Source: a virus. From it: DNA of 14,650 nt. The DNA is taken from UHGV virus genome UHGV-0042153. One strand, 5' to 3'. Positions within the stretch are counted from its first letter, which is position 1, and every line of letters begins with the position of its first letter. The position numbers and the translations under genes were made by a program. Below, in pieces: positions 1 through 14,650 of this stretch. The notes below the pieces were generated by a model. It had not been told where the DNA came from, searched no databases, and was given only the letters and a program-made list of their open reading frames with translations.

Positions 1-1149
1 TTGCTCCATGCTGGCACGAGGAAGATAAGGCAATCCCCAGTCGGTGTTGATAACCGCCCTGAGTGTTTCTTCGCTTCCTGTCGCTTCATACTCCTGTTCT
101 GCAGTCAGTAATTTGTAAACCAGTTGCGCCCAGGTCTGATACGCAGCAGCTGGCCCTTCCATCCAGAAACTGGCGATACGGGAGCGGCGCGGTTCACCGG
201 AAACGTTGCCGTTACGATCAATGACCTGACCTTCACGCAACCAGACTCCTGCACTATTGAGCTCACGCTTTTTCTCCGCAGTGATAATGCCGCTGCAGTG
301 CGGGCAAAGTAGATACGCCGCCTCACTGGCTTTAAAGGGATCCGGTTCATTACGGTAGCCGGTCATGGCATCCATGGCTGGCTGAAAATATTCACCGCAG
401 TGCGGACATGACCAGTACCAGCGGCGGCGGTCACCACGATTGTAAAGGGAAAGAATACCAGTCGTCGGTGGCGCTTCATGAGGCGACTTACGTCGCCATT
501 TGCTGTCGCAGATGTCACGTCCCGGCGAGCTCTCCACCAGAGTCATCCCGGCGGACATAAATGTGGTGGTACGTTTTGAGGCCAGGGAGAAACCATCACC
601 CTCGCTGTCGATATTCTCCGGAAAACGGTCGTAATCGGTTAAGGCGACAAACCGGTAATCCGACGACGACATAATGTTGACCGAGGGCCAACCAATTTTA
701 AGGAACGAGCCATCCCTGAACGTCTTATCATGGACATTATTGTCGTTACGACGTGGACTCATTCTTTTCTTTACCGCCGCACTGCTTCTGAACGTTCTGT
801 CGAGGCGCTTTTTAGAATGCTCGCGGGCCTTATCTTCGGTCATCTGCACAACGAGCATGTCCGAAGGATCGCAAACGATGGTATAGACAATCCATCCATC
901 GATCAGACCAATGGTCTTCCCTGTTCGCGCAGGACCAACAAAAATCACCGCATCGTATTCACGCGATGCCAGGCAGTTCATGGGCTCAATGATGTAGGGT
1001 GTCAGTTCAGGATCCCATGGCACCGAGTTACCAGCCCCCTTGGGAACACGCATGAATTTTTTAACAGCCTCCGAAATCGGCATGCGACGTGGTGGGGAAA
1101 ATCCTGCCGATATGTCCCTTCCCAAATTTCGGGCTGATGAAAAACCCAT
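1..1149 (-). CDS. Terminase large subunit (lambda gpA-like), N-terminal 383 codons; C-terminus lies beyond the window start
   Basis: Manual minus-strand translation from ATG at 1149 (GGAGG 6 nt upstream) is open to position 1: MGFSSARNLGRDIS...VGPARTGKT (Walker A P-loop)...CPHCGEYF...CPHCSG. Not in the ORF track because its stop is outside the window. Start sits 9 nt after the small-subunit stop. Confidence 0.85.
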   Translation of the reverse strand, partial: MGFSSARNLGRDISAGFSPPRRMPISEAVKKFMRVPKGAGNSVPWDPELTPYIIEPMNCLASREYDAVIFVGPARTGKTIGLIDGWIVYTIVCDPSDMLVVQMTEDKAREHSKKRLDRTFRSSAAVKKRMSPRRNDNNVHDKTFRDGSFLKIGWPSVNIMSSSDYRFVALTDYDRFPENIDSEGDGFSLASKRTTTFMSAGMTLVESSPGRDICDSKWRRKSPHEAPPTTGILSLYNRGDRRRWYWSCPHCGEYFQPAMDAMTGYRNEPDPFKASEAAYLLCPHCSGIITAEKKRELNSAGVWLREGQVIDRNGNVSGEPRRSRIASFWMEGPAAAYQTWAQLVYKLLTAEQEYEATGSEETLRAVINTDWGLPYLPRASMEQ

Positions 1150-1157
1150 TATTCCTC

Positions 1158-1685
1158 CTAGAGACTCTCTCCTTCCTCATCAGGAATTAATTCAGCAGCA
1201 CAAGCCTCGTAGGATTTTTCCTGAAGAGTGTATCGCAGGTCATCAATTGCCTGCTGTACAGCGCCGACGGCCTGAGGAGTCAGGGCGCAATCGCGTTCAA
1301 GAACATCCGGAATTGTCTCCAGAACCTGGACGACAGCCTTTCTCATGGACGAATAGACGATGACTACTTCATCAACGGGGATGAGTTTTCGCTGCTCCTT
1401 TTCCAGCTTGATCCTTTCATTTTCAGACTGGTACCAGTCCTTTCTCTCTTTCGGCTCCATACGGGATGGATCATGAACAGAGTCTGCTGCCTCATGCTTC
1501 ACACTAAACAGGGCTGGCCCGACATGCTGCAGGGCGTAAACGGGGTTCCCCCTGACAGTCGCAGCCACAGGAGTGTTGGCCGCGAGAAGCCGTTTTTTTA
1601 CTGTGTCCCGGTGAAGCCCAAAGGCCTCAGCGATTTTAAAAACACTCCAGTAATAAGCATCACCGATCCCGCTCACATTTGACAT
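1158..1685 (-). CDS. nohA: Terminase small subunit (lambda Nu1-like)
   Basis: Track ORF 1158..1715; I prefer the internal ATG at 1685 (MSNVSG..., GGAG upstream). N-terminal helix-turn-helix-like segment (IAEAFGLHRDTVKKRL) and acidic C-terminus as in Nu1; lies directly upstream of the large subunit and about 185 nt from the cos-like site. Confidence 0.8.
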   Translation of the reverse strand: MSNVSGIGDAYYWSVFKIAEAFGLHRDTVKKRLLAANTPVAATVRGNPVYALQHVGPALFSVKHEAADSVHDPSRMEPKERKDWYQSENERIKLEKEQRKLIPVDEVVIVYSSMRKAVVQVLETIPDVLERDCALTPQAVGAVQQAIDDLRYTLQEKSYEACAAELIPDEEGESL

Positions 1686-1864
1686 AAGCAACTCCATCTG
1701 GCAGGTGAAAATCATGTTTATTTATATATTTCAATTAATTGTAAACTGGTCTAATGACAGGGAGAAAAAAATATTGTACAGGTAAAAAGAGAAATAACTT
1801 TTAATTATCAATAAATTACCAAACATGCTGCCGCCGCCATGGAAATGCAAAAACTAGCCTTTTT

Positions 1865-1885
1865 CCGCGACGCTCCCGCCCCGTG
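1865..1885 (-). other. cosN-like cohesive-end site
   Basis: Minus-strand reading CACGGGGCGGGAGCGTCGCGG resembles lambda cosN (ACG GGGCGGCGACCT CGCGG, from memory) and sits at the lambda-like distance upstream of the Nu1 homolog, with an AT-rich stretch (candidate IHF/cosB) between them. Confidence 0.45.
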
Positions 1886-1910
1886 GCAGGGGCCCCCACC
1901 GGGAGGACCC

Positions 1911-1934
1911 GACAGCCTGACAGCCTGACAGCCG
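1911..1934. repeat. Three tandem copies of an 8-bp unit (GACAGCCT GACAGCCT GACAGCCG) next to the cos-like site
   Basis: Direct reading of the sequence. Confidence 0.7.
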
Positions 1935-2257
1935 TGACGAGCATCTGATACAGCGCTTTACATAATGGCATAGGAATAATTCAGAAGGACATCACAGCAT
2001 GCCCACACAAATTAGTGTGAGTGTCCTGTTTCTTCCTACGCACAGGACTGACGAGCATGAGGGGAAAATATGCGAACCATAAATGCCTCATCTTCAGCAA
2101 TGCAGCCGGCATCCGAACAGGACGATATTGTAAATTCACCTAATTACGAGGACATTGCAGTAGTTGAATTGCAGCTCTGTATTAGCCTGACAGTGACAGA
2201 ATGCGATATTGACTCTGTCACAGGTGAAATAGTTTGAATGATTAGCAGTTATGGTGC

Positions 2258-2464
2258 TCAGTCAACCACCAGGGAATAATCCTTCGAATTCTTATCGTGC
2301 TTCACCAACGCTGCCTCAATTGCCCTGAATGCTTCCAGAGACACCTTATGTTCTATACATGCAATTACAACATCAGGGTAACTCATAGAAATGGTGCTAT
2401 TAAGCATATTTTTTACACGAATCAGATCCAACGAGAGTTCATCAGCAGATTGTTCTTTATTCAT
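2258..2464 (-). CDS. Small hypothetical prophage protein (YnfO position)
   Basis: Track ORF, 68 aa, ATG with GGAG about 9 nt upstream; position matches ynfO in the recalled Qin order. Confidence 0.55.
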
Positions 2465-2764
2465 TTTGTCGCTCCATGCGTTTGCTCGTCATCTAGCGGT
2501 TAAAATATTACTTCAAATCTTACTGCATAAAAGAGGAAAAGTATGAAAGTTTGAGTACATCGACCTTACATACATCTGTCGGTTGCATATCCCTCCTGGA
2601 TGCCAGCAAGGCTCAATTTTGTTACGCAATCAACACTATTCATTAAAAACAGGCTTAATATTTGACATAAATCATCAACAAAACACAAAGAGGTCAGACC
2701 AGATTGAAACAATAAACACGATAATGCAAACTACGCGCCAGCGTATCACATGGAAGGTTTACCA

Positions 2765-3208
2765 ATGGCTCAGGCTGCCATTTTTAAAGAAATATTCGAT
2801 CAAGTGCGTAAAGATTTAAACTGTGAATTATTTTATTCTGAGCTAAAACGTCACAATATCTCACTTTATATTTACTATTTAGCCACAGATAATATTCACA
2901 TTGTGTTAGNNNNNNNNNNAGATAATATTCACATTGTGTTAGAAAACGACAACATAGTGTTAGTAAAAGGACTCAAAAAGGTTGTAAATGTTAAATTCTC
3001 CAGAAACAAACATCTTATAGAGACCTCCTATAATAAGTTGAAATCAAAAGAAATCACATTTCAACAATACAGGGAAAATCTTGCTAAAGCAGGAGTTTTC
3101 CGATGGGTTACAAATATCCAGGAACACCAAAGATATTACTATGCCTTTGATAACTCATTACTATTTACTGAAAGCATCCAGAAAACTACACAGATCTTAC
3201 CACGCTAA
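2765..3208 (+). CDS. ydfO: YdfO-like (DUF1398) prophage protein; reading frame passes through a 10-N gap
   Basis: Track ORF 2750..3208; I prefer ATG 2765 ([11 protein letters not shown]..., GGAAGG upstream). The gap plus a 23-bp duplicated flank adds 33 nt in frame (DNIHIVL-XXXX-DNIHIVL). Confidence 0.65.
2887..2942. repeat. Identical 23-bp sequence (AGATAATATTCACATTGTGTTAG) on both sides of the first N run
   Basis: Direct reading; typical of an unmerged contig overlap or an assembly break in a tandem repeat. Confidence 0.8.
2910..2919. other. Assembly or masking gap (10 N)
   Basis: Run of n characters. Confidence 0.95.
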
Positions 3209-3359
3209 ACCATAACGTCCGGCTTCTCTCACTCCTGAGCCGGACTGCATTGGTTTAATAAAAACCATCAACAATTGTGATTTAGATATTCGGAACCATT
3301 CAAATATAACAAAACCCCGTAAAAACGAGGTTTATGGATAAATTTTATTATTGAATACA

Positions 3360-3533
3360 TCAGATTAAATTAATCTTGACATCATAGCTTTCAAGACCCG
3401 TCATTTTTTCCCGTGCGGTAAACTGAATACTGGTAACTTCTTTCCCGGTCTTTTTCTTAAGTTCAATAATTTTTTTTGTTATATATTCAGAAATATCTGC
3501 TTCTGCTTTTGTTTTTAAGTTTTCAATATTCAT
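3360..3533 (-). CDS. gnsB: GnsB-like small protein (57 aa)
   Basis: Below the track cutoff; manual translation MNIENLKTKAEADISEYITKKIIELKKKTGKEVTSIQFTAREKMTGLESYDVKINLI with AGAGGA upstream of the ATG; matches the GnsA/GnsB family as I recall it and the gnsB position in Qin. Confidence 0.7.
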   Translation of the reverse strand: MNIENLKTKAEADISEYITKKIIELKKKTGKEVTSIQFTAREKMTGLESYDVKINLI

Positions 3534-3704
3534 CGTTTCCTCTTTTAGTCTGTTATGACTTTCCAGTTACACAGTAAGTCGATTATATGGTGCAAACGTG
3601 TAAAAGATAAGATGAAACATCGCAATAATCAACATACGATAGTCTAAATTTTACACAAACAGACAAAGAGAATTTTCCTGAATTATCAATACAATAGCAT
3701 CAAA

Positions 3705-3935
3705 TCAACTCAAGAGCCTTATTGCTGCTTCCAGAATTTCTTCTGAAGTAACATGTCGATCCGCGGCTACATAAATGACTTTATGATCTCCGGTCAGAGA
3801 TGGAAACCCTGCGGCCATTACAGTAAGGTGTGTTTTTTCGCCATTTGGATATTCACGCATGATGGTGTTAACTCCAGTCATCGCTGGCACTACCACTGCT
3901 GGTTCAGAGTTAAAAAAAACTATGATTTTTTTCAT
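3705..3935 (-). CDS. Hypothetical small protein (YnfN position)
   Basis: Track ORF 3705..3977 begins at TTG; the internal ATG at 3935 (MKKIIVFFNSEP...) is more plausible because the TTG overlaps a terminator. Weak RBS; assignment is by position only. Confidence 0.4.
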   Translation of the reverse strand: MKKIIVFFNSEPAVVVPAMTGVNTIMREYPNGEKTHLTVMAAGFPSLTGDHKVIYVAADRHVTSEEILEAAIRLLS

Positions 3936-3979
3936 GATGTTACCGTAGTATGTGAGTATCCATCGAATAGATACCAAGC

Positions 3980-3999
3980 AAAAAAGCTCCCGAAGGAGC
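3980..3999 (-). terminator. Intrinsic terminator-like hairpin downstream of cspI
   Basis: GCTCC-CGAA-GGAGC stem-loop followed by a U-run on the minus strand. Confidence 0.4.
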
Positions 4000-4206
4000 C
4001 TTCATTTTCACTTTTTTAAATCCAACGACAGACGGCTGGCATTTAAGTATTGTGAAATATTATCAAATGTAATCATCATTGATTTACAAAAGATACATTT
4101 TGCCCCGAAAGGATTCATGTCAGAAACATCAAAAGATGATGTTCTATACTGGGAACCATGACAACACGGGCATCTAAAGTGAATATGGTTTGTAATATTG
4201 TCTACC

Positions 4207-4419
4207 TCAAAGCGCCACTACATGAACAGCGGCAGGACCTTTAGGTCCGTTCTCAATACCAAATTCAACTTCCTGATTCTCAGTTAATGTTTTGAAATCG
4301 TTGCTCTGAATTGCTGAGAAATGGACAAACACATCTTTGCTGCCATCTTTCGGCGTGATGAAACCAAAACCTTTTTCAGGGTTAAACCATTTCACTAAAC
4401 CAGTCATTTTGTTAGACAT
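4207..4419 (-). CDS. cspI: Cold-shock protein, CspA family
   Basis: 70 aa; RNP1 KGFGFI and RNP2 VFVHF motifs; sequence matches CspI as I recall it. Confidence 0.9.
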
Positions 4420-4782
4420 AATTATTACCTTTTGAAGAAATTAGCCCTTGGGCAGAATGGTCCGAAAAAAAATATCAGAGAGAAAAACCAACAAGGAAAT
4501 CTCAAGAGGTACAAATAATAAAATTATAACAATGACTGCTTCAGATAAATTTGTAACAAACCAGAACACCATTAACGCATGATTAACCACCCATAGCAAG
4601 GATTACTTTTGTAAAGAAAAACACAGCAATGAAAGAATAGCTTTATTTATTAATAATAACGTGTCATTCTGATTAAGACCTTTTATCTTACCCTTAAGAT
4701 TTCAGGAATTTTGGCTCATGGAAGAGTCCTTTTTATTTAAATTTTACATTCCGCGATGTAAATGTTCCGATTTAATATTACC

Positions 4783-5806
<1,024 letters not shown>

Positions 5807-5810
<4 letters not shown>

Positions 5811-6118
5811 ATATATTTATGATGAGGACGCTCGTGCTTATTGGCAGGATTTTCAATCTTAAAGGAGTACTGATGCTGCAGATAAGACTCAACTTTTTCT
5901 GACAATTTTTCTGCTACTTCCAGGAAGACTTGCCGGACGCTCCTTCTGGCTGCTGCCTCATAAAACTCCAGCGCAGCTCCTTCAACACGGTCCATGGCGA
6001 CATCCAGGTCAAAAATTTCACCGTCAAAGCGTTTTTTGTCCCGTAACGCTAAAGTTACCGTAACTTTATTCTCAAAATTGCGGATCCCTTTCACAATCAG
6101 TTCATAGTTTTGAGTCAT
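5807..6118 (-). CDS. ydfR: YdfR-like (DUF1327) protein between holin and endolysin
   Basis: 103 aa, GGAGAG RBS; position matches ydfR in Qin. Confidence 0.7.
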
Positions 6119-6122
6119 TGAA

Positions 6123-6338
6123 TTACTCTCCTCTCGCAGCCTTACGCCTGTCTTCTTTAATCTTGAAATAAAGATTTGTCAGATACGTCAGCAGGCCAAA
6201 AACCAGGCTACCCAGCACACCGATTGCAGCCCACTGTGACGGAGTTACTTTATCGAGTAACTGCAATGCCCAGAAACCAGCATTACCCGCCGATGTGCCA
6301 TAGGCAACACCTGTTGTTAACTTATCCATTGATTTCAT
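6123..6338 (-). CDS. essQ: Class II pinholin (phage 21 S-like) with dual-start motif
   Basis: Track ORF trimmed to [10 protein letters not shown]... (71 aa); Met1 and Met4 dual start, two transmembrane segments, basic C-terminus [11 protein letters not shown]. Confidence 0.85.
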
Positions 6339-6557
6339 ATCCTCACCCCGATGTACACGGATGGTGCAATATGTTTGAAAAGATCGGAGTCTACGGGGTA
6401 GTTTTGACAGCACACGTTGTTCTCAACGGCGCTAAAAAAACATACACATTAAAAATGTGGGTAATTATTTTGAAAGAAAATCATATATAAAATAATAATA
6501 CGAGAAATGTTTTCATATTTAGTGTACTGTATACGGCCATTTATACAGGAAAAGCCT

Positions 6558-6728
6558 ATGTCAGAACGTAAAGACTCAAAATCACGCCGTAATTATCTCG
6601 TTAAATGCTCCTGCCCAAACTGCACCCAAGAGTCAGAACACAGTTTTTCAAGAGTACAAAAAGGTGCCCTTTTGATCTGCCCTCATTGCAACAAAATATT
6701 CCAGACAAATCTTAAAGCTGTAGCCTGA
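6558..6728 (+). CDS. Small zinc-ribbon protein (56 aa), possibly YnfU-like
   Basis: Internal ATG of track ORF 6507..6728 with AGGA RBS; two Cys pairs, CSCPNC and CPHC, about 20 residues apart. Confidence 0.5.
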   Translation: MSERKDSKSRRNYLVKCSCPNCTQESEHSFSRVQKGALLICPHCNKIFQTNLKAVA

Positions 6729-6784
6729 TTGATTTTATTAGTAACAAGTATTTTTTATATTTTAATAATATATTTAAAGCAGAT

Positions 6785-6809
6785 AATAAAAAACCCGCCT
6801 GAGCGGGTT
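6785..6809 (-). terminator. Intrinsic terminator (minus-oriented)
   Basis: AACCCGC-CTGA-GCGGGTT hairpin followed by a U-run on the minus strand. Confidence 0.5.
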
Positions 6810-7090
6810 TGAGATTGTGGTGCTTTTTGTGGGAGTCATCCACTTACGCACTTTGTTTTGCCATGCCAGCAGTTAGCTTCTGCTGTAAAACTATTCATGC
6901 AGCAAACCTGCACTTCACCACAATGGTTAGCATACTTTTCCTGATTAAGGTTTTGCCAAATATGCTGGCCATTGTTTCATGTATTGGACCTCCTTATTTT
7001 TATTAAAGAGATCCAATATTCACTACTCTGTCCGTATCTCTACTCAGGCATCAGCCTTCTTCGTTATCGTATACAGACGAGCGATGAATT

Positions 7091-7306
7091 TTAATCAGTA
7101 ATGATGACATTTGCTGCTGCAGGACCTTTAGCACCACTCTCTATAGAGAAGGTAACCTTTTGACCTTCAAATAAGGTTCGATAATTATCATTCTGAATCG
7201 CAGAAAAATGCACAAACACATCTTTACTACCATCAACAGGAGAAATAAAGCCGAAACCTTTATCAGCGTTAAACCATTTTACTAAACCAGTCATTTTATT
7301 TGACAT
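7091..7306 (-). CDS. cspB: Cold-shock protein, CspA family
   Basis: 71 aa; KGFGFI and VFVHF motifs; matches CspB as I recall it. Confidence 0.9.
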
Positions 7307-7606
7307 TCTACATTCCTTAACTTGAGCCTTTCGGCATAAATGGTTTGCATAACAGAAACGACTTCGTACTTAATTGGAGAGACTCAAAGAAGGAATAAGT
7401 GAATAACACCTGAAATGAGAACTGCTTTAGTAAACTACTTCGTATATCGTCTGTTCTTCAAACCGACGCAATCATTAACGCATAGTTGAACATATGAAGC
7501 AATGTTTATTTTAGACATCCAGCCATCTTCAACCCCATCAAAAAACTATAGCTTTCTTCAGGAACGTGTGTATAGTGCGCCAAGTTATCAGTATTAAGGA
7601 ATTTTT

Positions 7607-7819
7607 TTGTCCCGTAAAATGACAGGAATTGTCAAAACCTTTGACGGCAAAAGCGGCAAGGGTCTTATCACCCCATCCGATGGTCGTATCGATGTCCAGC
7701 TTCATGTTTCAGCGCTCAATCTCCGCGATGCAGAAGAAATTACCACCGGATTACGCGTGGAATTTTGCCGGATAAATGGTCTGCGTGGCCCTTCAGCTGC
7801 CAATGTTTACCTTTCATGA
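7607..7819 (+). CDS. cspF: Divergent cold-shock-domain paralog (CspF/CspH type)
   Basis: 70 aa beginning [10 protein letters not shown]; TTG start at 7607 with AAGGA 6 nt upstream; the aromatic RNP1/RNP2 residues are replaced ([16 protein letters not shown]). Confidence 0.8.
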
Positions 7820-7873
7820 GCTATATTAAAGCTTTAATTTCAGGCCCCATCGGATCACACATGGAGAGTTTTT

Positions 7874-7963
7874 ATGAATAACCCCGTCTGTCTTGATGAC
7901 TGGATGATTGGCTTTAAAAGCTTATGCTGTACTTTGGCCGTAATAGCTCTGCTAATAATATAA
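7874..7963 (+). CDS. Candidate 29-aa hydrophobic peptide
   Basis: ATG with GGAGAG upstream; [29 protein letters not shown]. No other support. Confidence 0.2.
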
Positions 7964-8112
7964 TAAGCAGACTCATTGTGTTTAGGGACATTGTACTGGA
8001 AGAAAACATTTTAAACATCAGGCAAATAACCAAGTCACCAGCTAAATAATAAGTTAACAGACATGAGTCCCGGGATGAGATTCAACATTACCATTGCCCC
8101 ATTTAAAGCACA

Positions 8113-8147
8113 AAACCCGCTCATCAGCGGGTTTTCTACTTTTTCTT
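8113..8147. terminator. Intrinsic terminator, usable in both orientations (cspF terminator and candidate tR')
   Basis: AACCCGC-TCATCA-GCGGGTT hairpin with a T-run on the plus strand and a shorter U-run on the minus strand. Confidence 0.5.
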
Positions 8148-8180
8148 AACGTCGGGTATACAAAGCCCATCGTTGAAAAA

Positions 8181-8209
8181 ATTTTATCCATATTTTTTGA
8201 AAAATGCAA
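8181..8209 (-). promoter_or_regulatory. Candidate late promoter (PR'-like) just downstream of quuQ
   Basis: Minus-strand TTGCAT, 17-bp spacer, TAAAAT; predicted start about 65 nt upstream of the hairpin at 8114-8133. Confidence 0.35.
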
Positions 8210-8240
8210 ACATCATGTCGCCATCTTCAGCAAAAATCAT

Positions 8241-8993
8241 TTATCTCGTCACCTTCCTCAATTGCGCTTCCGCGTATGCTTCTTCCTGCCAGCACTTTGT
8301 TACCAGTTTACCAATGACGTCCGCATACCCCTTATACCACTGATAATCGGTCAGGTCTGGTACCAGCTTCTGGACATGACGTCGTGCCAGCGTGGTCGGT
8401 AAACGACTAAACCGGTTTCCATTACAACGCCCACAAATCTTATATACCGGTACGCCATGAAACCGGGTTCTTTTTTCATCCAGAACAATCCCTTTACCCT
8501 TACACCCTCTGCACGCTGTGCTGACTTCGCCCTTACCATGGCAATGCTGACATAGTTCCTTCACCCATTCTTCCTTGATTACAGATTCCCCGCGTCTGTA
8601 GTGTTTCACCACTTCGCGCAATACATTATAAAATCCCGTACCTGAACAATGCTCACAGCGAGCCTTACTTGCCGCAGACCTGGAGTAATCAGCAAAGGCA
8701 AAACTCACGAGGTAAGGAATAATCTGTAACCGGATTTCTTCACTCAATTTGTTCAATGTCGGGTTATCCAGTGCCATCGCGTAATTTAGCAGGCCTTCAA
8801 TCGCAAACTGAGGGTCCTGAACACCAACTTTTGCCAGAAATAAGGCCAACCCAAGTGGTGCTTTCGACTGCACCATCCCCTGCGCTGCCATTACATCCGT
8901 AATTGTTAAACAACCGGTGCCTGTCGCTGGAGCGTCATCGCTCAATTTTGGAGATTTTGGGGAGTAATATTTTGGTAAGGCTTCAAGGTTCAT
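8241..8993 (-). CDS. quuQ: Late-gene antiterminator Q, lambda type
   Basis: Track ORF trimmed to ATG 8993 (GGAG upstream); strong resemblance to lambda Q (YSPKSP...TDVMAA...FAFADYSRSAA...CxxC zinc-finger pairs). Confidence 0.85.
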   Translation of the reverse strand: MNLEALPKYYSPKSPKLSDDAPATGTGCLTITDVMAAQGMVQSKAPLGLALFLAKVGVQDPQFAIEGLLNYAMALDNPTLNKLSEEIRLQIIPYLVSFAFADYSRSAASKARCEHCSGTGFYNVLREVVKHYRRGESVIKEEWVKELCQHCHGKGEVSTACRGCKGKGIVLDEKRTRFHGVPVYKICGRCNGNRFSRLPTTLARRHVQKLVPDLTDYQWYKGYADVIGKLVTKCWQEEAYAEAQLRKVTR

Positions 8994-9006
8994 GCTCGTT
9001 CTCCAC

Positions 9007-10095
9007 TTACGCCAGTACGCCAATTGCCAGCGCGCGATCGATAAAACGAAATATCAGCTCCAGTTGGGAGCCATACTTCTCTTCAAATGCCACTGTATCC
9101 GTATGCAGCTCGTTGTGATGCTTTCTGCACAAAGGCAACACAAAGAGATCATGTGCTTTTGTTCCCATTCCGCCCTGCCCGTGACCAATCAGATGATGCG
9201 GATCGTCGGCTGGCATACCGCAGCAAGCACACGGCTGTGTCTTAACCCAACGTGTGTATTTCTCCTTAACCCAGCGGCGACGTTTAGGCAGCTTCATGAA
9301 AGATTCCGGAGACTCTGGATCAACGGTGATGCTTACCACCGTCTTTTCCTGTGGTGGTTTTTGTTGCTGGTAGGCGTAAGGCAACGGTGCAAGATTTTTT
9401 GTGCGTTGTTTCAATATGCTGGTGGCGGTCTGCTCTCCCGGTACGATGTCGCTTTCGCGGTACACCGAGCAGATTTTTTCCGCTGGTAATCCCAGCGAAC
9501 GACGCGATACAGCCTCAGGTAGTGCATCCACCACCTGATTGCAGACCGCCCACCAGGATAATTCAGCCAAAGATAATTCCCGCTCCTGCGTACCGCTTAT
9601 TGCGTGACGGATGACGTCAATCACCCATGCTGTCAGATTTTGTTGAGCAAGCAGATCCAGTGATTCCGATGTCTGGTCACGCAGTTGGTTGTCGCAGTGC
9701 CAACACAACACCATTGCGCCGGTACCATAACGGTGAATGACTGTTTCAGAGTGATGGTAATCGCCATTAGGCCACTGGCAGGATGTAACATGACGTAATA
9801 GCCAGTCAGACAATGCGCCAACGCCGCCAGCAGCACGAATCACCCGTTCGTTACTAAAAAACGGCAGCAATGTTTTGTCTTCCACCAGCGGCTGGCGAAC
9901 GGCAGGAACGACTCCGGATGGCAGATTACGCATGCTTTTTGGTTCCGGTTCCACCAGCACTCGAGGATTATGAAATATCTGTATGGATTCACGGCCCGGC
10001 TTAAGGACCACCAGCCCAAGCTCAGGCACCAGAACAGGTCTAAGTAATACCCGCACGTTACCTCCAGATCCGTTGCTGGAAAGTGCGGGACGCAC
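9007..10095 (-). CDS. ydfU: DUF968-type nin-region protein with C-terminal HNH-like Cys/His cluster
   Basis: 362 aa, GTG start; motif QPCACCG...DDPHHLIGHG...CRKHHNELH; position between rem and Q as in Qin. Exact start uncertain. Confidence 0.8.
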   Translation of the reverse strand: MRPALSSNGSGGNVRVLLRPVLVPELGLVVLKPGRESIQIFHNPRVLVEPEPKSMRNLPSGVVPAVRQPLVEDKTLLPFFSNERVIRAAGGVGALSDWLLRHVTSCQWPNGDYHHSETVIHRYGTGAMVLCWHCDNQLRDQTSESLDLLAQQNLTAWVIDVIRHAISGTQERELSLAELSWWAVCNQVVDALPEAVSRRSLGLPAEKICSVYRESDIVPGEQTATSILKQRTKNLAPLPYAYQQQKPPQEKTVVSITVDPESPESFMKLPKRRRWVKEKYTRWVKTQPCACCGMPADDPHHLIGHGQGGMGTKAHDLFVLPLCRKHHNELHTDTVAFEEKYGSQLELIFRFIDRALAIGVLA

Positions 10096-10336
10096 GTGGT
10101 GGGCGTTCGGAGTAAGGCAATCTGACTGAGATTATCCAGTGACGGTAGTCGAGGCTAAGGGCTTTCTTAACCTCGTATCCGCGCCTGCGGTAACACTGAA
10201 TTATCCATTCAGCCTGCTCTTCAGTGCATGGAGGGTGTTGGAACCATTCAGACTTGAATGCGTGAGAATACCGCTCGTGCGTGCAGACAAGAACGGGCGA
10301 ATTATCAGAATTGTAATATTTTACGTTGCGTGCCAT
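10058..10336 (-). CDS. Conserved small phage protein (92 aa) overlapping the DUF968 start
   Basis: ATG with GGAG RBS; a paralog at 14010..14282 shares most residues and the same overlap arrangement. Confidence 0.55.
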   Translation of the reverse strand: MARNVKYYNSDNSPVLVCTHERYSHAFKSEWFQHPPCTEEQAEWIIQCYRRRGYEVKKALSLDYRHWIISVRLPYSERPPRASRTFQQRIWR

Positions 10337-10402
10337 CGGTTTTCTCCGGTGGCACGGTGTTACTCAGCGGGAGTTCAGCCCCGCGCAAGATTGTAGATGA
10401 GT

Positions 10403-10654
10403 TTATTCTTCTGCAAAAGCTGAAAAGCCTGCTTTTATTCCGATCTCTTTCAGTGCCTGTAATGAAGTGACAAACTCACCTTCGCGCAAGATAAATCCGT
10501 CCGTGACTCGAGCATCCACAAAATTAATTAACGCAGCCCCATTCTTTCGCAAACACAGAATGCGGTAATGACTAACAATGTTTCCATTTTCAACGCACAC
10601 AGCATAGAGGCCATCTTCACAAAAAATTTTACGCAGTTCTTCGATGTTCATCAT
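10403..10654 (-). CDS. rem: Rem-like small protein (83 aa)
   Basis: ATG with GGAAGG RBS; length and position match rem in Qin; function unknown. Confidence 0.65.
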   Translation of the reverse strand: MMNIEELRKIFCEDGLYAVCVENGNIVSHYRILCLRKNGAALINFVDARVTDGFILREGEFVTSLQALKEIGIKAGFSAFAEE

Positions 10655-10770
10655 CAGAATCCTTCCGGATAATTAACTCTCCCCTTTAAGGGACCATCCC
10701 TCTTATCCCTGCGCGCTACTTAAGTATTTTTGATTCTATTCCGGCACCGTCCAGAACTTCAAACGCGTTG

Positions 10771-10802
10771 AAAATAAAAACAAAAACCCGCCGAAGCGGG
10801 TT
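10771..10802 (-). terminator. Intrinsic terminator (minus-oriented) immediately left of gap 2
   Basis: AACCCGC-CGAA-GCGGGTT hairpin followed by a U-run on the minus strand. Confidence 0.5.
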
Positions 10803-10812
10803 AAGTGCGGGT

Positions 10813-10822
10813 NNNNNNNNNN
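10813..10822. other. Assembly or masking gap (10 N)
   Basis: Run of n characters. Confidence 0.95.
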
Positions 10823-10999
10823 TTTGAAATACAGGTTAGTCAGATATGTCAGGAAGCCCAGAACCAGACTCCCCAGTACACCAATCGCAGCCCACTGTGA
10901 CGGACTGACCTGATCAAGCCACTGTAAAAACCAGTAGCCAGCACTGCCTGCGGAGGTGCCGTAGGCAATGCCCGTTGAAATTTTATCCATGGATTTCAT
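10823..10999 (-). CDS. Second S21-like pinholin, truncated at its 3' end by gap 2
   Basis: [59 protein letters not shown] then N run; GGAGGTGAGG RBS; the track ORF's N-terminal extension (GTG 11098) is not credible. Confidence 0.7.
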
Positions 11000-11136
11000 A
11001 GCCTCACCTCCGCAGCGAACGGATGGCGTAGTTATAAGGGGAGCGAAAAAGAAAGAATGCGCGATTGCGCAATATGGTAACGTCAGGGTATTATCCACTG
11101 GCTGAATAGATCACTTCACGTTTTTTGTTCCTTGCC

Positions 11137-11164
11137 GCCCGTATCCATATGCGGGCTTTTTTTT
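11137..11164 (+). terminator. Intrinsic terminator (plus-oriented)
   Basis: 8-bp stem GCCCGTAT/ATATGCGGGC with 4-nt loop followed by eight T. Confidence 0.45.
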
Positions 11165-11170
11165 GCATGT

Positions 11171-11200
11171 AAAAAGGCCCCAACACATGTGCGTGGGGCC
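11171..11200 (-). terminator. Intrinsic terminator (minus-oriented) between the tRNAs and the holin
   Basis: GGCCCCA/TGGGGCC stem followed by a U-run on the minus strand. Confidence 0.45.
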
Positions 11201-11440
11201 TGAGAGTATACATGGTTTCAGTCAACTGCATGGTGCCGGGTGCCTCCCGGTGAATTCAGTACCAGCACCTGAATCCGCGATTATCCCATATACCTACTCG
11301 CTGATTGCCCCTCCGCACAGGGGGATTCACCATGCCAGTTTCTTTTAACAAACTCCCCGCAAAACAGACAACTGTCAACCGTCTGAATTGTGAGACATTT
11401 AAAAAAAAGGCCCGCAAAAGCGAGCCGGGAAAAATAAGTC

Positions 11441-11517
11441 TGGCGCGTTGTACTGGATTCGAACCAGTGACCGATTGCTTAGAAGGCAATTGCTCTGTCC
11501 GGTTGAGCTAACAACGC
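11441..11517 (-). tRNA. tRNA-Arg, anticodon TCT
   Basis: Manual fold: 7-bp acceptor stem GCGTTGT/ACAACGC, D-arm GCTC...GAGC, anticodon loop CTTCTAA, T-loop GGTTCGAATCC, encoded CCA. Confidence 0.85.
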
Positions 11518-11530
11518 AGGGTACAGATAA

Positions 11531-11607
11531 TGGACCGCCATCGAGGACTCGACCCCCGCGCAACCAGCTTCGAAGGCTGGTGCTCTATCCTGATGAGCTA
11601 ATGGCGG
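11531..11607 (-). tRNA. tRNA-Arg, anticodon TCG
   Basis: Manual fold: acceptor CCGCCAT/ATGGCGG, perfect anticodon stem CCAGC/GCTGG with loop CTTCGAA, encoded CCA. 5' end could be offset by 1 nt. Confidence 0.75.
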
Positions 11608-11614
11608 TATGTGA

Positions 11615-11690
11615 TGGTGGCCCTTGCTGGATTTGAACCAGCGACCTGGCGATTATGAGTCGCTCGCTCTCACCTCTGAGCTAAAGGGCC
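11615..11690 (-). tRNA. tRNA with anticodon CAT, ileX-like (tRNA-Ile2 type)
   Basis: Acceptor GGCCCTT/AAGGGCC; anticodon loop CTCATAA; closely resembles E. coli ileX as I recall it. Ile versus Met cannot be settled from the fold alone. Confidence 0.8.
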
Positions 11691-11810
11691 GGGCGCAGGA
11701 TAATAACGTTACGAAATCAATGTTGCAAGCATTCAAAAATCACCTGGTTAAAAATCACCCTTAGCTCCTCCACCAGCGCATTCACCATGTCTATCCGAGA
11801 TAAGTGGCAC

Positions 11811-11848
11811 AAAAAAACCCGCTTGTGGGCGGGTTTTGTTTGCTTTTG
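11811..11848. terminator. Intrinsic terminator usable in both orientations (candidate tR' for the second Q module)
   Basis: AACCCGC-TTGTG-GCGGGTT hairpin flanked by an A-run and a T-run. Confidence 0.5.
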
Positions 11849-11888
11849 CCATCACGTACAAAATCGGCAAAATATCAGATTTGCATGA

Positions 11889-11917
11889 AATATATGCCTT
11901 TCAATCTACTTTTGCAA
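11889..11917 (-). promoter_or_regulatory. Candidate late promoter (PR'-like) overlapping the 3' end of the second Q-like gene
   Basis: Minus-strand TTGCAA, 17-bp spacer, TATATT; predicted start about 65 nt upstream of the terminator at 11811-11835. Confidence 0.35.
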
Positions 11918-12590
11918 CACTTTGCTTTGAAAATGCCGCCTTTTGTTTTGAACGTGTTCTCATTACAAACAATAAAGCCTCACTATCCAGTCGTTGAAAA
12001 ATGTGTTTCATTGCAACCCAGTGACGAGTAAATGTTTTGGACCAGTTTTTAGTTGTCACTCCCGCCAGTAATGCCAGCTCCTGGTATTCATAACCTTCCC
12101 CACCAAAAAGTTCTGCTTTTACTGCCTGCGCCGCCAGCCAGATTAATTTTTTCAGGCGTTCCTGCGTTTTCCCTGCAATTTTTCTGGTACCGGATTGAGT
12201 ATTAAATTCATTCCACGCCCACTGTGTTATCGCGATCTGATATTCCCAACAAATACTCTCGCCGTAACACCACAACAACCAGGCTTTATGATGCTCTTCA
12301 AGAGACAGCAAAGCCCGCCGCCATGATGATGTCGAAAACTCAACCGGGCTGACCAGGGCAATTGATGAGCCATTCGCCAGTGATTGTTTTCCCGGGATTG
12401 GTGGATTATCCCGCGTTATCATTTTTCCAGTCACTTCATCGCGGTACCGGATTTTTTTTCGCCTGTAACGCCCTGTATCGAACATGGCATTCTCCTGCCA
12501 GGCTTCAAGCTGACCTTTTGTTGCCCCACTCAAATCAGCGGTGGCGATAATGAGCTGCTCACGCACAAACTGTAAATACTGGTTATTCAT
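11901..12590 (-). CDS. Putative second late antiterminator (Q-like by position); family not recognised
   Basis: 229 aa from ATG 12590 (GGAG upstream, ATGA overlap with rusA stop); sits between RusA and a promoter/terminator/tRNA/holin arrangement. No similarity to lambda Q visible by eye. Confidence 0.5.
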   Translation of the reverse strand: MNNQYLQFVREQLIIATADLSGATKGQLEAWQENAMFDTGRYRRKKIRYRDEVTGKMITRDNPPIPGKQSLANGSSIALVSPVEFSTSSWRRALLSLEEHHKAWLLWCYGESICWEYQIAITQWAWNEFNTQSGTRKIAGKTQERLKKLIWLAAQAVKAELFGGEGYEYQELALLAGVTTKNWSKTFTRHWVAMKHIFQRLDSEALLFVMRTRSKQKAAFSKQSVAKVD

Positions 12591-12946
12591 GCGCACTCCA
12601 GTTCTGTGATTTTTATCCCCAGCCGCCCACCAGGAACGAGCTGACCGCGCACAATATTGATTTCATCAAACTGCTCGTCGTCTATGAGAAGTCCGGCATG
12701 CGTCAGCGCATCCAGTGGTGCTTTCAGGATATTGTCCAGGTCACGACGGCGCTTATCCGGTGGCTCTGCAATAATTTTTATTGCCAGCCGTCCGGACAGG
12801 CTTAATTTCAGCCGCTGCTGGCGAACAATAAGCGCCACAGCCCGGCGATAACGCTTTCCCTCCTCCGAGATAAAATATGTGCTGCCACGGCGTCGCCAGT
12901 AAGTGTTCACCGTCGGCGGGTAAGGTAAAACCAAATCTATGAGCAT
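12587..12946 (-). CDS. rusA: RusA-family Holliday junction resolvase
   Basis: 119 aa; PDKRRRDLDN and LDDEQ acidic motifs typical of RusA; AGAGGTGA RBS. Confidence 0.85.
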   Translation of the reverse strand: MLIDLVLPYPPTVNTYWRRRGSTYFISEEGKRYRRAVALIVRQQRLKLSLSGRLAIKIIAEPPDKRRRDLDNILKAPLDALTHAGLLIDDEQFDEINIVRGQLVPGGRLGIKITELECA

Positions 12947-12958
12947 CAGTCACCTCTT

Positions 12959-14080
12959 TTACCCGAGCACGCCAGTTGCAAAGGCGTGATCAAGAAAACG
13001 AAAAATTAAATCAACCTGAGAACCATGCTTTTCTTCGAACGCCAGAGGATCCGCATGAAGCTCGTTGTGATGCTCCCGACACAGCGGTAGCGTGAAAATA
13101 TCGTGAGATTTTGTCCCCATTCCGCCCTGACCATGACCAATCAGGTGATGGGGATCGTCGGCTGGCTTACCACAACACGCACACGGCTGTGTCTTCACCC
13201 AGCGTGTGTATTTCTCGTTAACCCAGCGGCGACGTTTAGGTCGTTTCATGAAAGATTCCGGAGACTCAGGATCAACGGCAATGCTGACCACCGTCTTTTC
13301 CTGTGGTGGGTTCTGTTGCTGGTGGGCGTGAGGCAGCGGCGCAAGATTTTTTGTGCGCTGTTTCAGTATGCTGGTGGCGGTCTGCTCTCCCGGTACGATG
13401 TCGCTTTCACGGTACATTGAGCGGATTTTTTCCGCACGCAACCCCAGCGAACGACGTAATACCGCTTCCGGTAGCGCGTCCGCCACCTGATTGCGGACCG
13501 CCCACCAGGATAATTCAGCCAGAGATAATTCACGCTCCTGCGTACCGCTTATTGCGTGACCGATGACGTCAATCATCCATGCTGACAGGTTTTGATGAGC
13601 AAGTTGCTCGAGTGATTCGGATGTCTGGTCACGCAACTGGTTGTCGCAGTGCCAGCACAACACCATTGCGCCGGTACCATAACGGTGAATGACGGTTTCA
13701 CTGTGGTGATAATCACCGTGTGGCCACTGGCAGGATTTAATATGGCGCAACAGCCAGTCAGACAGTGCACCAGCGCCGCCAGCAGCACGAATCACACGCT
13801 CATTGCTGAAAAATGGCAGTAATGATTTATCCTCCGCCAGCGGCTGGCGAACGGCAGGAACGACCCCGGACGGCAGATTACGCATGCTTTTCGGTTCAGG
13901 CTCCACCAGCACTCGAGGGTTATGAAATACTTGCATGGATTCACAGCCCGGCCTAAGGACCACAAGCCCGAGTTCCGGTACCAGAACAGGTCGAAGTAAT
14001 ATCCGCACGTTACCTCCAGATCCGTTGCTGGTATGTGCGGGATGGGCGCGGTGGGCGTTCGGAATAAGGGAGCCTGACAT
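12959..14080 (-). CDS. DUF968-type protein, second copy (paralog of 9007..10095)
   Basis: 373 aa; same HNH-like motif (QPCACCGKPADDPHHLIGHG...CREHHNELH); most positions identical to copy 1 with scattered substitutions. Confidence 0.8.
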   Translation of the reverse strand: MSGSLIPNAHRAHPAHTSNGSGGNVRILLRPVLVPELGLVVLRPGCESMQVFHNPRVLVEPEPKSMRNLPSGVVPAVRQPLAEDKSLLPFFSNERVIRAAGGAGALSDWLLRHIKSCQWPHGDYHHSETVIHRYGTGAMVLCWHCDNQLRDQTSESLEQLAHQNLSAWMIDVIGHAISGTQERELSLAELSWWAVRNQVADALPEAVLRRSLGLRAEKIRSMYRESDIVPGEQTATSILKQRTKNLAPLPHAHQQQNPPQEKTVVSIAVDPESPESFMKRPKRRRWVNEKYTRWVKTQPCACCGKPADDPHHLIGHGQGGMGTKSHDIFTLPLCREHHNELHADPLAFEEKHGSQVDLIFRFLDHAFATGVLG

Positions 14081-14282
14081 AGATTATCCAGTGACGATAA
14101 TCGAGGCTGAGGGCTTTCTTAATCTCGTATCCGCGTCTGCGGTAGTTATGAATTAGCCATTCGGCCTGTTCTTCAGTACATGGTGGGTGTTGGTACCAGT
14201 CGGTTTTAAATGCGTGTGAACGCCGCTCATGCCGGATGGCAAGGTCGGTATCAGAATTGTGAAATTTGGTTTTGTGCGCCAT
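14010..14282 (-). CDS. Conserved small phage protein, second copy (paralog of 10058..10336)
   Basis: 90 aa; shared C-terminal half HPPCTEEQAEW...YRRRGYE[VI]KKALSLDYRHWII.VRLPYSERPPR. Confidence 0.55.
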   Translation of the reverse strand: MAHKTKFHNSDTDLAIRHERRSHAFKTDWYQHPPCTEEQAEWLIHNYRRRGYEIKKALSLDYRHWIIYVRLPYSERPPRPSRTYQQRIWR

Positions 14283-14354
14283 CTGTTTTCTCTGCTGGCG
14301 CAGCAGGTGTCAGGTGTTCAGGCTGACGTGCGAATTGTAAACCAGAATGCCAGG

Positions 14355-14381
14355 AAAAAACAAAACCCGCCGAAGCGGGTT
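14355..14381 (-). terminator. Intrinsic terminator (minus-oriented) downstream of hok, immediately left of gap 3
   Basis: Same AACCCGC-CGAA-GCGGGTT hairpin as at 10785-10802, followed by a U-run on the minus strand. Confidence 0.5.
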
Positions 14382-14391
14382 AAGTGCGGGT

Positions 14392-14401
14392 NNNNNNNNN
14401 N
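14392..14401. other. Assembly or masking gap (10 N)
   Basis: Run of n characters. Confidence 0.95.
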
Positions 14402-14437
14402 GATGCACTCACTGGCGGTCACTGAACAACGGGTCTC

Positions 14438-14593
14438 TTACTCCTCATGTTCGTAAGCTGTGAAGACAGCGGCCTCCGTCTGGCCGGTTCGGATTCGTAC
14501 CCCCCAGAGGTCTTTCCTCGTTACCAGTGCCGTCACAATGACGGTTAAACAGATGACGATCAGGGCGATTAACATCGCCTTTTGCTGCTTCAT
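14438..14593 (-). CDS. Hok/Gef-family type I toxin (51 aa), HokD/RelF-like
   Basis: Internal ATG of track ORF 14438..14650 with GGAG RBS: MKQQKAMLIALIVICLTVIVTALVTRKDL...; single transmembrane helix; an overlapping upstream frame (mok-like) starts at the window edge. Confidence 0.8.
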   Translation of the reverse strand: MKQQKAMLIALIVICLTVIVTALVTRKDLWGVRIRTGQTEAAVFTAYEHEE

Positions 14594-14650
14594 AGCCTGC
14601 TTCTCCTTGCCTTTCGGCACGTAAGAGGCTAACCTACATGTGTCTAGCAT

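Follow-up and report, generated by a model that had tools for sequence, protein, structure and literature searches.

A tRNA trio of probable ileZ-argN-argO type in the late-control region of a lambdoid Escherichia prophage

The tRNA genes and their surroundings

The window analysed here is the whole 14,650-nt stretch of UHGV virus genome UHGV-0042153. In these 14.65 kb, ARAGORN calls exactly three tRNA genes, all on the minus strand at 11441-11690. Their order of transcription is CAT, TCG and TCT, with spacers of 7 nt and then 13 nt, and all three encode the CCA end and are drawn by ARAGORN as standard cloverleaves. Matches to the Rfam tRNA family RF00005 coincide with these calls and reach 70.6 (CAT), 51.2 (TCG) and 70.1 bits (TCT). 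The corresponding E-values of 5e-14, 1e-8 and 7e-14 lie far beyond chance, and each score exceeds the Rfam gathering score of 29 bits, which served as the criterion for tRNA membership. An earlier note, written from the sequence alone, had placed a CAT, TCG and TCT trio at these positions within a prophage and had named a tRNA finder as the check. Coordinates and anticodons proved exact, and the finder returned the same anticodons; the strand had been left unstated. The features around the trio are listed in the order of minus-strand transcription.

11901-12590, minus strand: antitermination protein Q, 229 aa (PF06323, 305.9 bits; annotated as Q in identical records)
11889-11917, minus strand: pR'-like late promoter TTGCAA-17-TATATT from a consensus scan, overlapping the end of Q
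11808-11837, minus strand: tR'-like intrinsic terminator AAAACCCGCCCACAAGCGGGTTTTTTTG with a T-run, between pR' and the cassette
11700-11728, minus strand: promoter-like site TTGCAA-17-TATTAT from a consensus scan, candidate cassette promoter
11615-11690, minus strand: tRNA-Ile2 (CAT), ileZ-like (ARAGORN and Rfam)
11531-11607, minus strand: tRNA-Arg (TCG), argN-like (ARAGORN and Rfam)
11441-11517, minus strand: tRNA-Arg (TCT), argO-like (ARAGORN and Rfam)
11399-11426, minus strand: intrinsic-terminator-like hairpin GGCTCGCTTTTGCGGGCC followed by T8, 14 nt past argO
11165-11364, minus strand: full-length prophage sRNA of the STnc100 family (RF02076, 140.2 bits), not a member of the cassette
10823-10999, minus strand: 5' part of a class II holin gene, codons 1-59 (PF04971), cut by the scaffold gap
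10813-10822, no strand: run of 10 N, a scaffold gap joining a Qin-like piece to the tRNA-bearing piece

The trio thus lies between the Q antiterminator gene and the holin fragment, in prophage DNA as the earlier note had it, just after the late-control module of Q, pR' and tR' and ahead of the lysis genes. The fragment was also identified by alignment to the L001 holin. The late promoter is a putative pR', a role assigned from its position relative to Q. The tR'-like hairpin was detected on the plus strand, and its T-run is seen in the minus-strand reading. Other neighbours of the trio in the window are RusA, DUF968 and hokD. The STnc100 gene begins 76 nt downstream of argO and lies near the trio in most IMG/VR relatives. 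STnc100 is related to the PasD sRNAs of pathogenic E. coli (2026 preprint), and PGAP annotates a pseudo 'hypothetical protein' over it on the opposite strand.

The scaffold itself constrains which genes can be regarded as neighbours. Positions 1-10812 match a Qin-like prophage (terminase, cspI, rzpQ, rrrQ, essD, cspB, cspF, ydfT, ydfU, rem), and 10823-14636 match another lambdoid prophage. The junction across 10813-10822 is present in no complete E. coli genome, and in strain MS 85-1 about 0.5 Mb separates the Qin-like piece from the tRNA-bearing one. Their juxtaposition stems from scaffolding and is an artefact, as is the ORF at 10736-11098 (minus strand) that spans this second gap. Given the gap, the true downstream genes are those found in complete genomes and not the Qin-like genes of the window. 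Complete genomes with a 100% identical tRNA region show the order DUF968, RusA, Q, tRNAs, holin, YdfR, lysozyme, Rz, terminase, and head and tail genes. The Qin-like lysis and late genes (cspB, essD, rrrQ and others) were considered as clients of the trio and dropped because of the N-gap, the lack of any genome with the junction and the separation in MS 85-1; these late genes, left of the trio, lie beyond the gap.

Several side observations concern the same scaffold. Another run of exactly ten N lies at 2910-2919, and its flanks repeat about 23 nt (AGATAATATTCACATTGTGTTAG), like overlapping contig ends. Two unrelated Q families are present, a ydfT-type gene at 8241-8993 on the minus strand (PF03589 with a DnaJ-like zinc finger) and the PF06323-type gene at 11901-12590, each with a DUF968 gene ahead of it; these two DUF968 genes share 85% identity. 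The cspA thermoregulator (RF01766) is matched on the minus strand at 7075-7467 and 4180-4565, with 159 and 113 bits, in stretches that take in both the 5' UTR and the coding region of cspB and cspI, the cold-shock genes of the Qin prophage.

Signals on both sides of the trio give it the appearance of a compact unit of about 330 bp, made up of a promoter-like site, three tRNA genes and an intrinsic terminator. After the TTGCAA-17-TATTAT site comes a GC-rich discriminator, CCTGCGCCC, which ends 9 nt before the 5' end of ileZ. Among 117 related loci, nothing else in the upstream flank is as well conserved as the two promoter hexamers, and the rest of that flank is variable; the terminator stem and T-run are conserved in relatives. 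In 99 of 120 loci, similarity to phages with other Q genes sets in at about 11720-11729, and the other border of similarity among such phages commonly falls at 11400-11429; similarity to the Stx2 phage L002 stops at 11400. The module borders therefore coincide with promoter and terminator, and the cassette behaves as a self-contained unit. We infer that it would also be read through from pR' while Q is active.

Between the cassette terminator and STnc100 (11365-11440) lies a slot of 76 nt that is empty in the window and holds no ORF. In IMG/VR loci (for example L101, L104, L105, L091 and L111), this gap is an insertion hotspot for cargo, with discrete size classes. The empty class of about 77 nt comprises 36 loci, the window included. 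Inserts of about 700-830 nt hold either a 108-aa ORF or a TerB-like ORF of 143 aa, and those of about 1.1 kb a methyltransferase-like ORF of 311 aa. A class of about 1.4 kb, with seven loci, holds Stx2 A and B; L111, the one representative translated, encodes both. Stx2 A and B also fill the slot in L002. The trio here is a marker for the late-control region of a lambdoid prophage that lacks stx and whose cargo slot is empty.

Identity of the three tRNAs

The closest named counterparts are the ileZ, argN and argO genes of Stx2 phage Stx2a_WGPS6 (NC_049945), which follow Q in this order and precede stx2AB. Identity per tRNA is 99%, 90% and 97%, respectively, and window positions 11400-11755 align with that phage at 92% identity over 357 nt. 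The trio has the CAU-UCG-UCU order, a single strand, short spacers, a place after Q and pR' and homology to the named genes. The stxA and stxB genes that follow the tRNAs in Stx-converting phages are absent from the window; their absence is not defining for the cassette, and every other defining feature examined was found. We therefore consider it likely that the trio is the ileZ-argN-argO cassette of lambdoid (Stx-type and related) Escherichia prophages, supplementing the decoding of rare codons.

The CAT gene has been labelled in two ways. ARAGORN calls it 'tRNA-Met', as do many GenBank phage records, and 'tRNA-Met' is listed in several phage papers (PMC7946995). The gene would then be an extra elongator or initiator tRNA-Met and the trio would not be aimed at AUA, a reading to which we assign next to no probability. 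The Met label comes from taking the anticodon at face value, and the gene is 91% identical to K-12 ileY and 88% to ileX, against 68% to metT and metU. It (GGCCCUU...AAGGGCC) keeps C4:G69 and C5:G68, where metT has U4:A69 and A5:U68 instead. These are the major identity pairs used by E. coli TilS (PMC11947777), and they are typical of tRNA-Ile(CAT) genes, of which E. coli O157:H7, with nine, had the most among 234 genomes surveyed (PMC1635315). Initiator features are absent as well: the pair G1-C72 and the lack of a G29-G31 run show that it is not an initiator by the criteria of PMC1635315. In identical records, PGAP annotates the gene as tRNA-Ile. Identity to ileX and ileY together with the TilS pairs effectively refutes the Met reading. 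With a CAU anticodon, the TilS pairs and greater closeness to Ile2 than to Met tRNAs, the gene is, by its sequence, an Ile2 paralogue of the ileX/ileY type that keeps the TilS identity pairs, and the earlier description of it as ileX-like holds. Conversion of C34 to lysidine by host TilS, and reading of AUA, are expected of it.

Both arginine tRNAs carry the major elements on which charging depends. The major identity elements of E. coli ArgRS are A20 and C35, together with G36 or U36, and they are present in the two genes of the window. The argO-like tRNA, 71% identical to K-12 argU, has A20, C35, U36 and G73. It is predicted to read AGA and probably AGG as well. In three IMG/VR loci (L067, L022 and L066), argO is cut short just past the anticodon loop and fused to unrelated GCTGTGGTTGCACTCC..., which points to a recombination breakpoint within the tRNA gene.

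The argN-like gene is the unusual member. No K-12 Arg tRNA is more than 71% identical to it. Seven annotated Arg tRNA genes of K-12 were fetched; they read ACG (four genes), CCG, UCU and CCU and make up the established complete K-12 set. The UCG tRNA is foreign to the host tRNA set, in line with the earlier remark that no such tRNA came to mind for E. coli. It has A20, C35 and G36, and all 21 of its stem pairs are standard. The allele in the window is atypical, with C1-G72, U73 and a G54 in the T-loop (GUCGAGU). All 83 related TCG loci share A20, C35 and G36 as well as C1-G72 and U73, and the A73 or G73 discriminator of all K-12 Arg tRNAs fetched is thus replaced by U73. Position 73 is a minor determinant, so charging of argN is still expected.

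Position 54 is T in 73 of the 83 TCG loci, G in five and C in five. The canonical U(T)54, which pairs with A58, is present in the ileZ-like and argO-like genes and is missing from the window argN. Rfam gives the G54 allele 51.2 bits, against 56.2 for an otherwise identical T54 allele (L039), and its minimum-free-energy fold shrinks the T-loop to 5 nt. An outright pseudogene is an unsupported description, since the stems all pair, A20, C35 and G36 are kept and the score is 51 bits, although G54 and U73 may still leave it without function. With intact stems and G54 in place of the near-universal U/T, the window argN may be the least active of the three.

Codon demand and proposed function

The earlier note had proposed that all three tRNAs decode codons rare in E. 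coli and supplement codon reading for late or cargo genes. Codon use was compared with a baseline of 42 K-12 core genes (14,790 codons), the late set of the native prophage comprising 6,820 codons. In the core genes, ATA, CGA and AGA occur at 2.4, 2.6 and 1.2 per 1000 codons, so that all three are indeed rare; AGG, CGG and CTA stand at 0.7, 3.5 and 4.1. Enrichment relative to this core was as follows.

ATA: native prophage late genes 2.4-fold (p=2e-4); early genes 3.4-fold; window genes 4.9- to 5.0-fold
AGA: native prophage late genes 4.6-fold (p=4e-8); early genes 6.1-fold; window genes 5.7- to 7.5-fold
AGG: native prophage late genes 7.2-fold (p=1e-9); early genes 14-fold; window genes 7.8- to 9.5-fold
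CGG: native prophage late genes 3.5-fold (p=6e-13); early genes 3.3-fold; window genes 1.8- to 3.3-fold
CGA: native prophage late genes 1.6-fold (p=0.086); early genes 3.9-fold; window genes 2.1-fold (not significant) to 2.6-fold

The anticodon set matches the codon demand of the prophages. ATA, AGA, AGG and CGG are significantly enriched, and the control CTA, a rare codon without a phage tRNA, is not (0- to 1.2-fold). AT bias as the cause was rejected, since GC-rich CGG is enriched and A-ending CTA is not. The classic cargo gene stx2A contains 15 ATA and 6 AGA in 319 codons. To this extent the supplementation proposal stands, as a correlation. For CGA the enrichment is weaker, and it is not significant in either late-gene set (1.6-fold, p=0.086; 2.1-fold, p=0.13). 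Nor is there a restriction to late or cargo genes: early genes are enriched equally or more strongly, a Qin-like prophage that has no tRNAs is enriched as well, and the cargo slot of the window is empty. Because the enrichment is not specific to late genes and is present in the tRNA-less Qin-like prophage, its support for supplementation is correlative only, and it may simply reflect the composition of foreign DNA.

The following sequence of events would link the cassette to this demand. Transcription would start at its own stable-RNA-like promoter and, after induction, would also come from Q-modified RNA polymerase passing through tR'. RNase P would cut the polycistronic precursor, which would then be trimmed. 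Host TilS would convert C34 of the first tRNA to lysidine, leading to charging with isoleucine and reading of AUA. The UCU tRNA would top up the scarce host argU pool for AGA and AGG. Where intact, the UCG tRNA would read CGA and CGG directly, with no need for the inefficient I:A wobble of the host's tRNA-Arg(ICG). Overall, genes of the phage and others of horizontal origin, in which the codons served by the cassette are 2 to 14 times as frequent as in the core, would be translated faster or more accurately. The case for cassette function is correlative, with expression, modification, charging and phenotype all predicted from the DNA.

The rare-codon interpretation is the standard one for these genes and fits the general literature on phage tRNAs. 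It has reportedly been attached to ileZ, argN and argO since the 1999 paper by Plunkett and colleagues on the 933W genome. A search for the three gene names in the literature collection consulted found nothing relevant. The trio is long known and nothing about it is new in kind.

Variation among relatives, rival readings and known counterparts

Cassettes of this type are common in E. coli. A 901-bp query around the trio matched 306 phage records, mostly of Stx2-converting phages, and 3,266 of 5,426 complete E. coli genomes. The 250-bp trio itself is covered to at least 80% in 2,578 of these genomes, a single genome holding as many as 11 such places. When one genome was scanned for each species, five matched: E. 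coli, E. albertii, one Escherichia sp. and two metagenome-assembled genomes. The last two are probably contaminated, and the cassette is essentially confined to Escherichia. In the same scan the exact trio pattern occurred in a contig from a 'Proteobacteria bacterium' assembly and in one binned as uncultured Collinsella (L133 and L137); the latter most likely belongs to an Escherichia phage and was placed in an actinobacterial assembly by faulty binning.

The three genes vary to very different degrees. From IMG/VR, 120 loci were gathered by exact match to the anticodon arms of ileZ (15 nt) and argO (13 nt), leaving the middle gene free; this anchoring somewhat deflates the diversity of ileZ and argO and leaves the ranking unchanged. 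Seven alleles of ileZ were found, with 108 of the 120 loci identical, as compared with 27 of argO and 50 in the middle slot. Loci-weighted diversity per site is 0.0024 for ileZ, 0.022 for argO and 0.079 for argN (TCG alleles only), about 30 times the ileZ value, against 0.20 for the 13-nt inter-tRNA spacer and 0.25-0.45 for the flanks. In argO, stems are perfect in 107 of 116 loci and one compensatory C-G to G-C swap was found. Among the 83 TCG loci, argN keeps all stems in 49, has at least one broken stem pair in 34 and shows no compensatory change.

The middle position also departs from argN altogether. ARAGORN calls no middle tRNA in 34 of the 120 loci, nearly all of which hold a conserved 80-nt variant (type B; for example L110, L125, L126 and L059). 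This variant keeps the argN acceptor, D and T arms, has a 7-bp stem with a 3-nt loop where argN has its anticodon arm, and carries in the T-loop a G-run of variable length, from 5 to 12 G. It is called by none of ARAGORN, Rfam and PGAP, and the representative L110 falls below the Rfam threshold. Two loci have a Lys(TTT)-like middle tRNA, below the Rfam gathering score, and one has Arg-UCU. In locus L019 (1909-2001), of PPompW-type phages, the slot is given as tRNA-Lys(TTT) by ARAGORN and by GenBank annotators; this form arose from argN as its anticodon arm changed, with a compensatory exchange of G30-C40 for A-T, and it has C33.

Selection thus appears to act very strongly on ileZ, clearly on argO and weakly on argN. 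The near invariance of ileZ, the good conservation of argO and the frequent loss of argN suggest that any benefit is carried by the AUA and AGA/AGG tRNAs and not by the CGA tRNA.

The same pattern bears on the most serious alternative, in which the cassette, or at least argN, is a largely neutral passenger that hitch-hikes with the Q-to-lysis region and slowly decays, with a benefit limited to ileZ and perhaps argO. The contrast between the diversity of argN and that of ileZ fits such a course. So do broken stem pairs in 34 of 83 TCG alleles with zero compensatory substitutions, a middle form without an anticodon loop, recognised by neither ARAGORN nor Rfam, in about one third of the 120 loci, the 5 bits by which the G54 allele falls below its T54 twin, and the lack of significant CGA enrichment in late genes. 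However, argN is still 2.5 to 5 times less diverse than the adjoining spacer and flanks, 49 of the 83 loci keep every stem, and A20, C35 and G36 never vary. Strong purifying selection on ileZ and argO also means that the cassette as a whole is not neutral. We regard this explanation as a real possibility, though clearly the less probable one.

Two further readings start from the lability of the middle position, and both are unlikely. The position could be a fast-evolving, swappable tRNA slot rather than a decaying gene, its turnover driven by conflict with tRNA-targeting nucleases of the host or of competitors, or its non-decoding form could have taken on another tRNA-like role; we give this little credence. 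Marginally less probable still, the phage tRNAs could be counter-defence spares for host Arg, Ile or Lys tRNAs cut during infection or induction by anticodon nucleases (colicin D-like or of the PrrC/PARIS type), with no part in codon bias, an idea that comes from published work on virulent-phage tRNAs. The turnover of the middle slot between Arg-UCG, Lys-UUU in PPompW-type phages and Arg-UCU in one locus has the look of an arms race, and the phage Arg tRNAs are only 63-71% identical to those of the host. Yet the anticodon loops of argO and argN equal those of host argU and argQ except at position 34 and show no sign of changes that would evade a nuclease. In sequence, ileZ hardly differs from host ileY, the window holds no linked gene for defence or for a nuclease, and codon enrichment offers the simpler explanation.

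It is very improbable that the tRNA genes serve chiefly as punctuation for RNA processing, with RNase P cuts splitting the pR' leader from the late or cargo mRNA and setting its 5' end and stability, and decoding as a by-product: the cassette does always lie downstream of tR' and ahead of the first late or cargo gene, cargo being inserted immediately behind it, and its spacers are very short, but its own terminator right after argO argues for a self-contained unit, its anticodons and identity elements are conserved far beyond processing needs and its anticodon set fits codon demand.

The reading of the trio as the ileZ-argN-argO cassette places it among known systems. Recognising the cassette here adds no new biology, and what little it contributes is comparative. 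Modest additions come from the argN allele with G54, from the strongly unequal constraint on the three tRNA genes, from evidence that the cassette has a promoter and a terminator of its own, and from the cargo slot that stands empty.

The nearest counterpart is the ileZ-argN-argO set of Stx phages (933W-type; NC_049945), which shares the anticodons, their order, the 7- and 13-nt spacers and the place after Q. Unlike NC_049945, the window has no stx after the cassette and a Q of a different family (PF06323). The argN genes differ at eight positions; the window allele has G54, whereas the Stx2 allele has T54 together with an A:C mismatch and three G:U pairs.

Host tRNAs provide the second comparison. 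The CAT tRNA shares with ileX and ileY the CAU anticodon, the anticodon loop, C4:G69 and C5:G68, at 88-91% identity. It differs in having A27:C43 instead of G27:U43 atop the anticodon stem and in its D-loop and T-loop, and its gene lies in a prophage, in tandem with two Arg tRNAs. The argO-like tRNA has its anticodon, anticodon loop, A20, G73 and encoded CCA in common with host argU, the classic rare-codon tRNA. Its acceptor, anticodon and T stems differ, and at 71% identity it is not a recent copy of argU.

The tRNA clusters of virulent phages, such as T4 and T5, have been read as compensation for codon usage (Bailly-Bechet et al. 2007, as cited in PMC7946995). Like those tRNAs, the trio has anticodons that match codons which the phage over-uses relative to its host. 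In contrast to those clusters, it resides in a temperate prophage, comprises only three tRNAs, has its own candidate promoter of the stable-RNA type and occurs in about half of E. coli genomes, so that the host itself may gain from it during lysogeny. The cassette represents the textbook case of temperate-phage tRNAs for codons that the host reads poorly, and in Stx phages it stands directly before the toxin genes.
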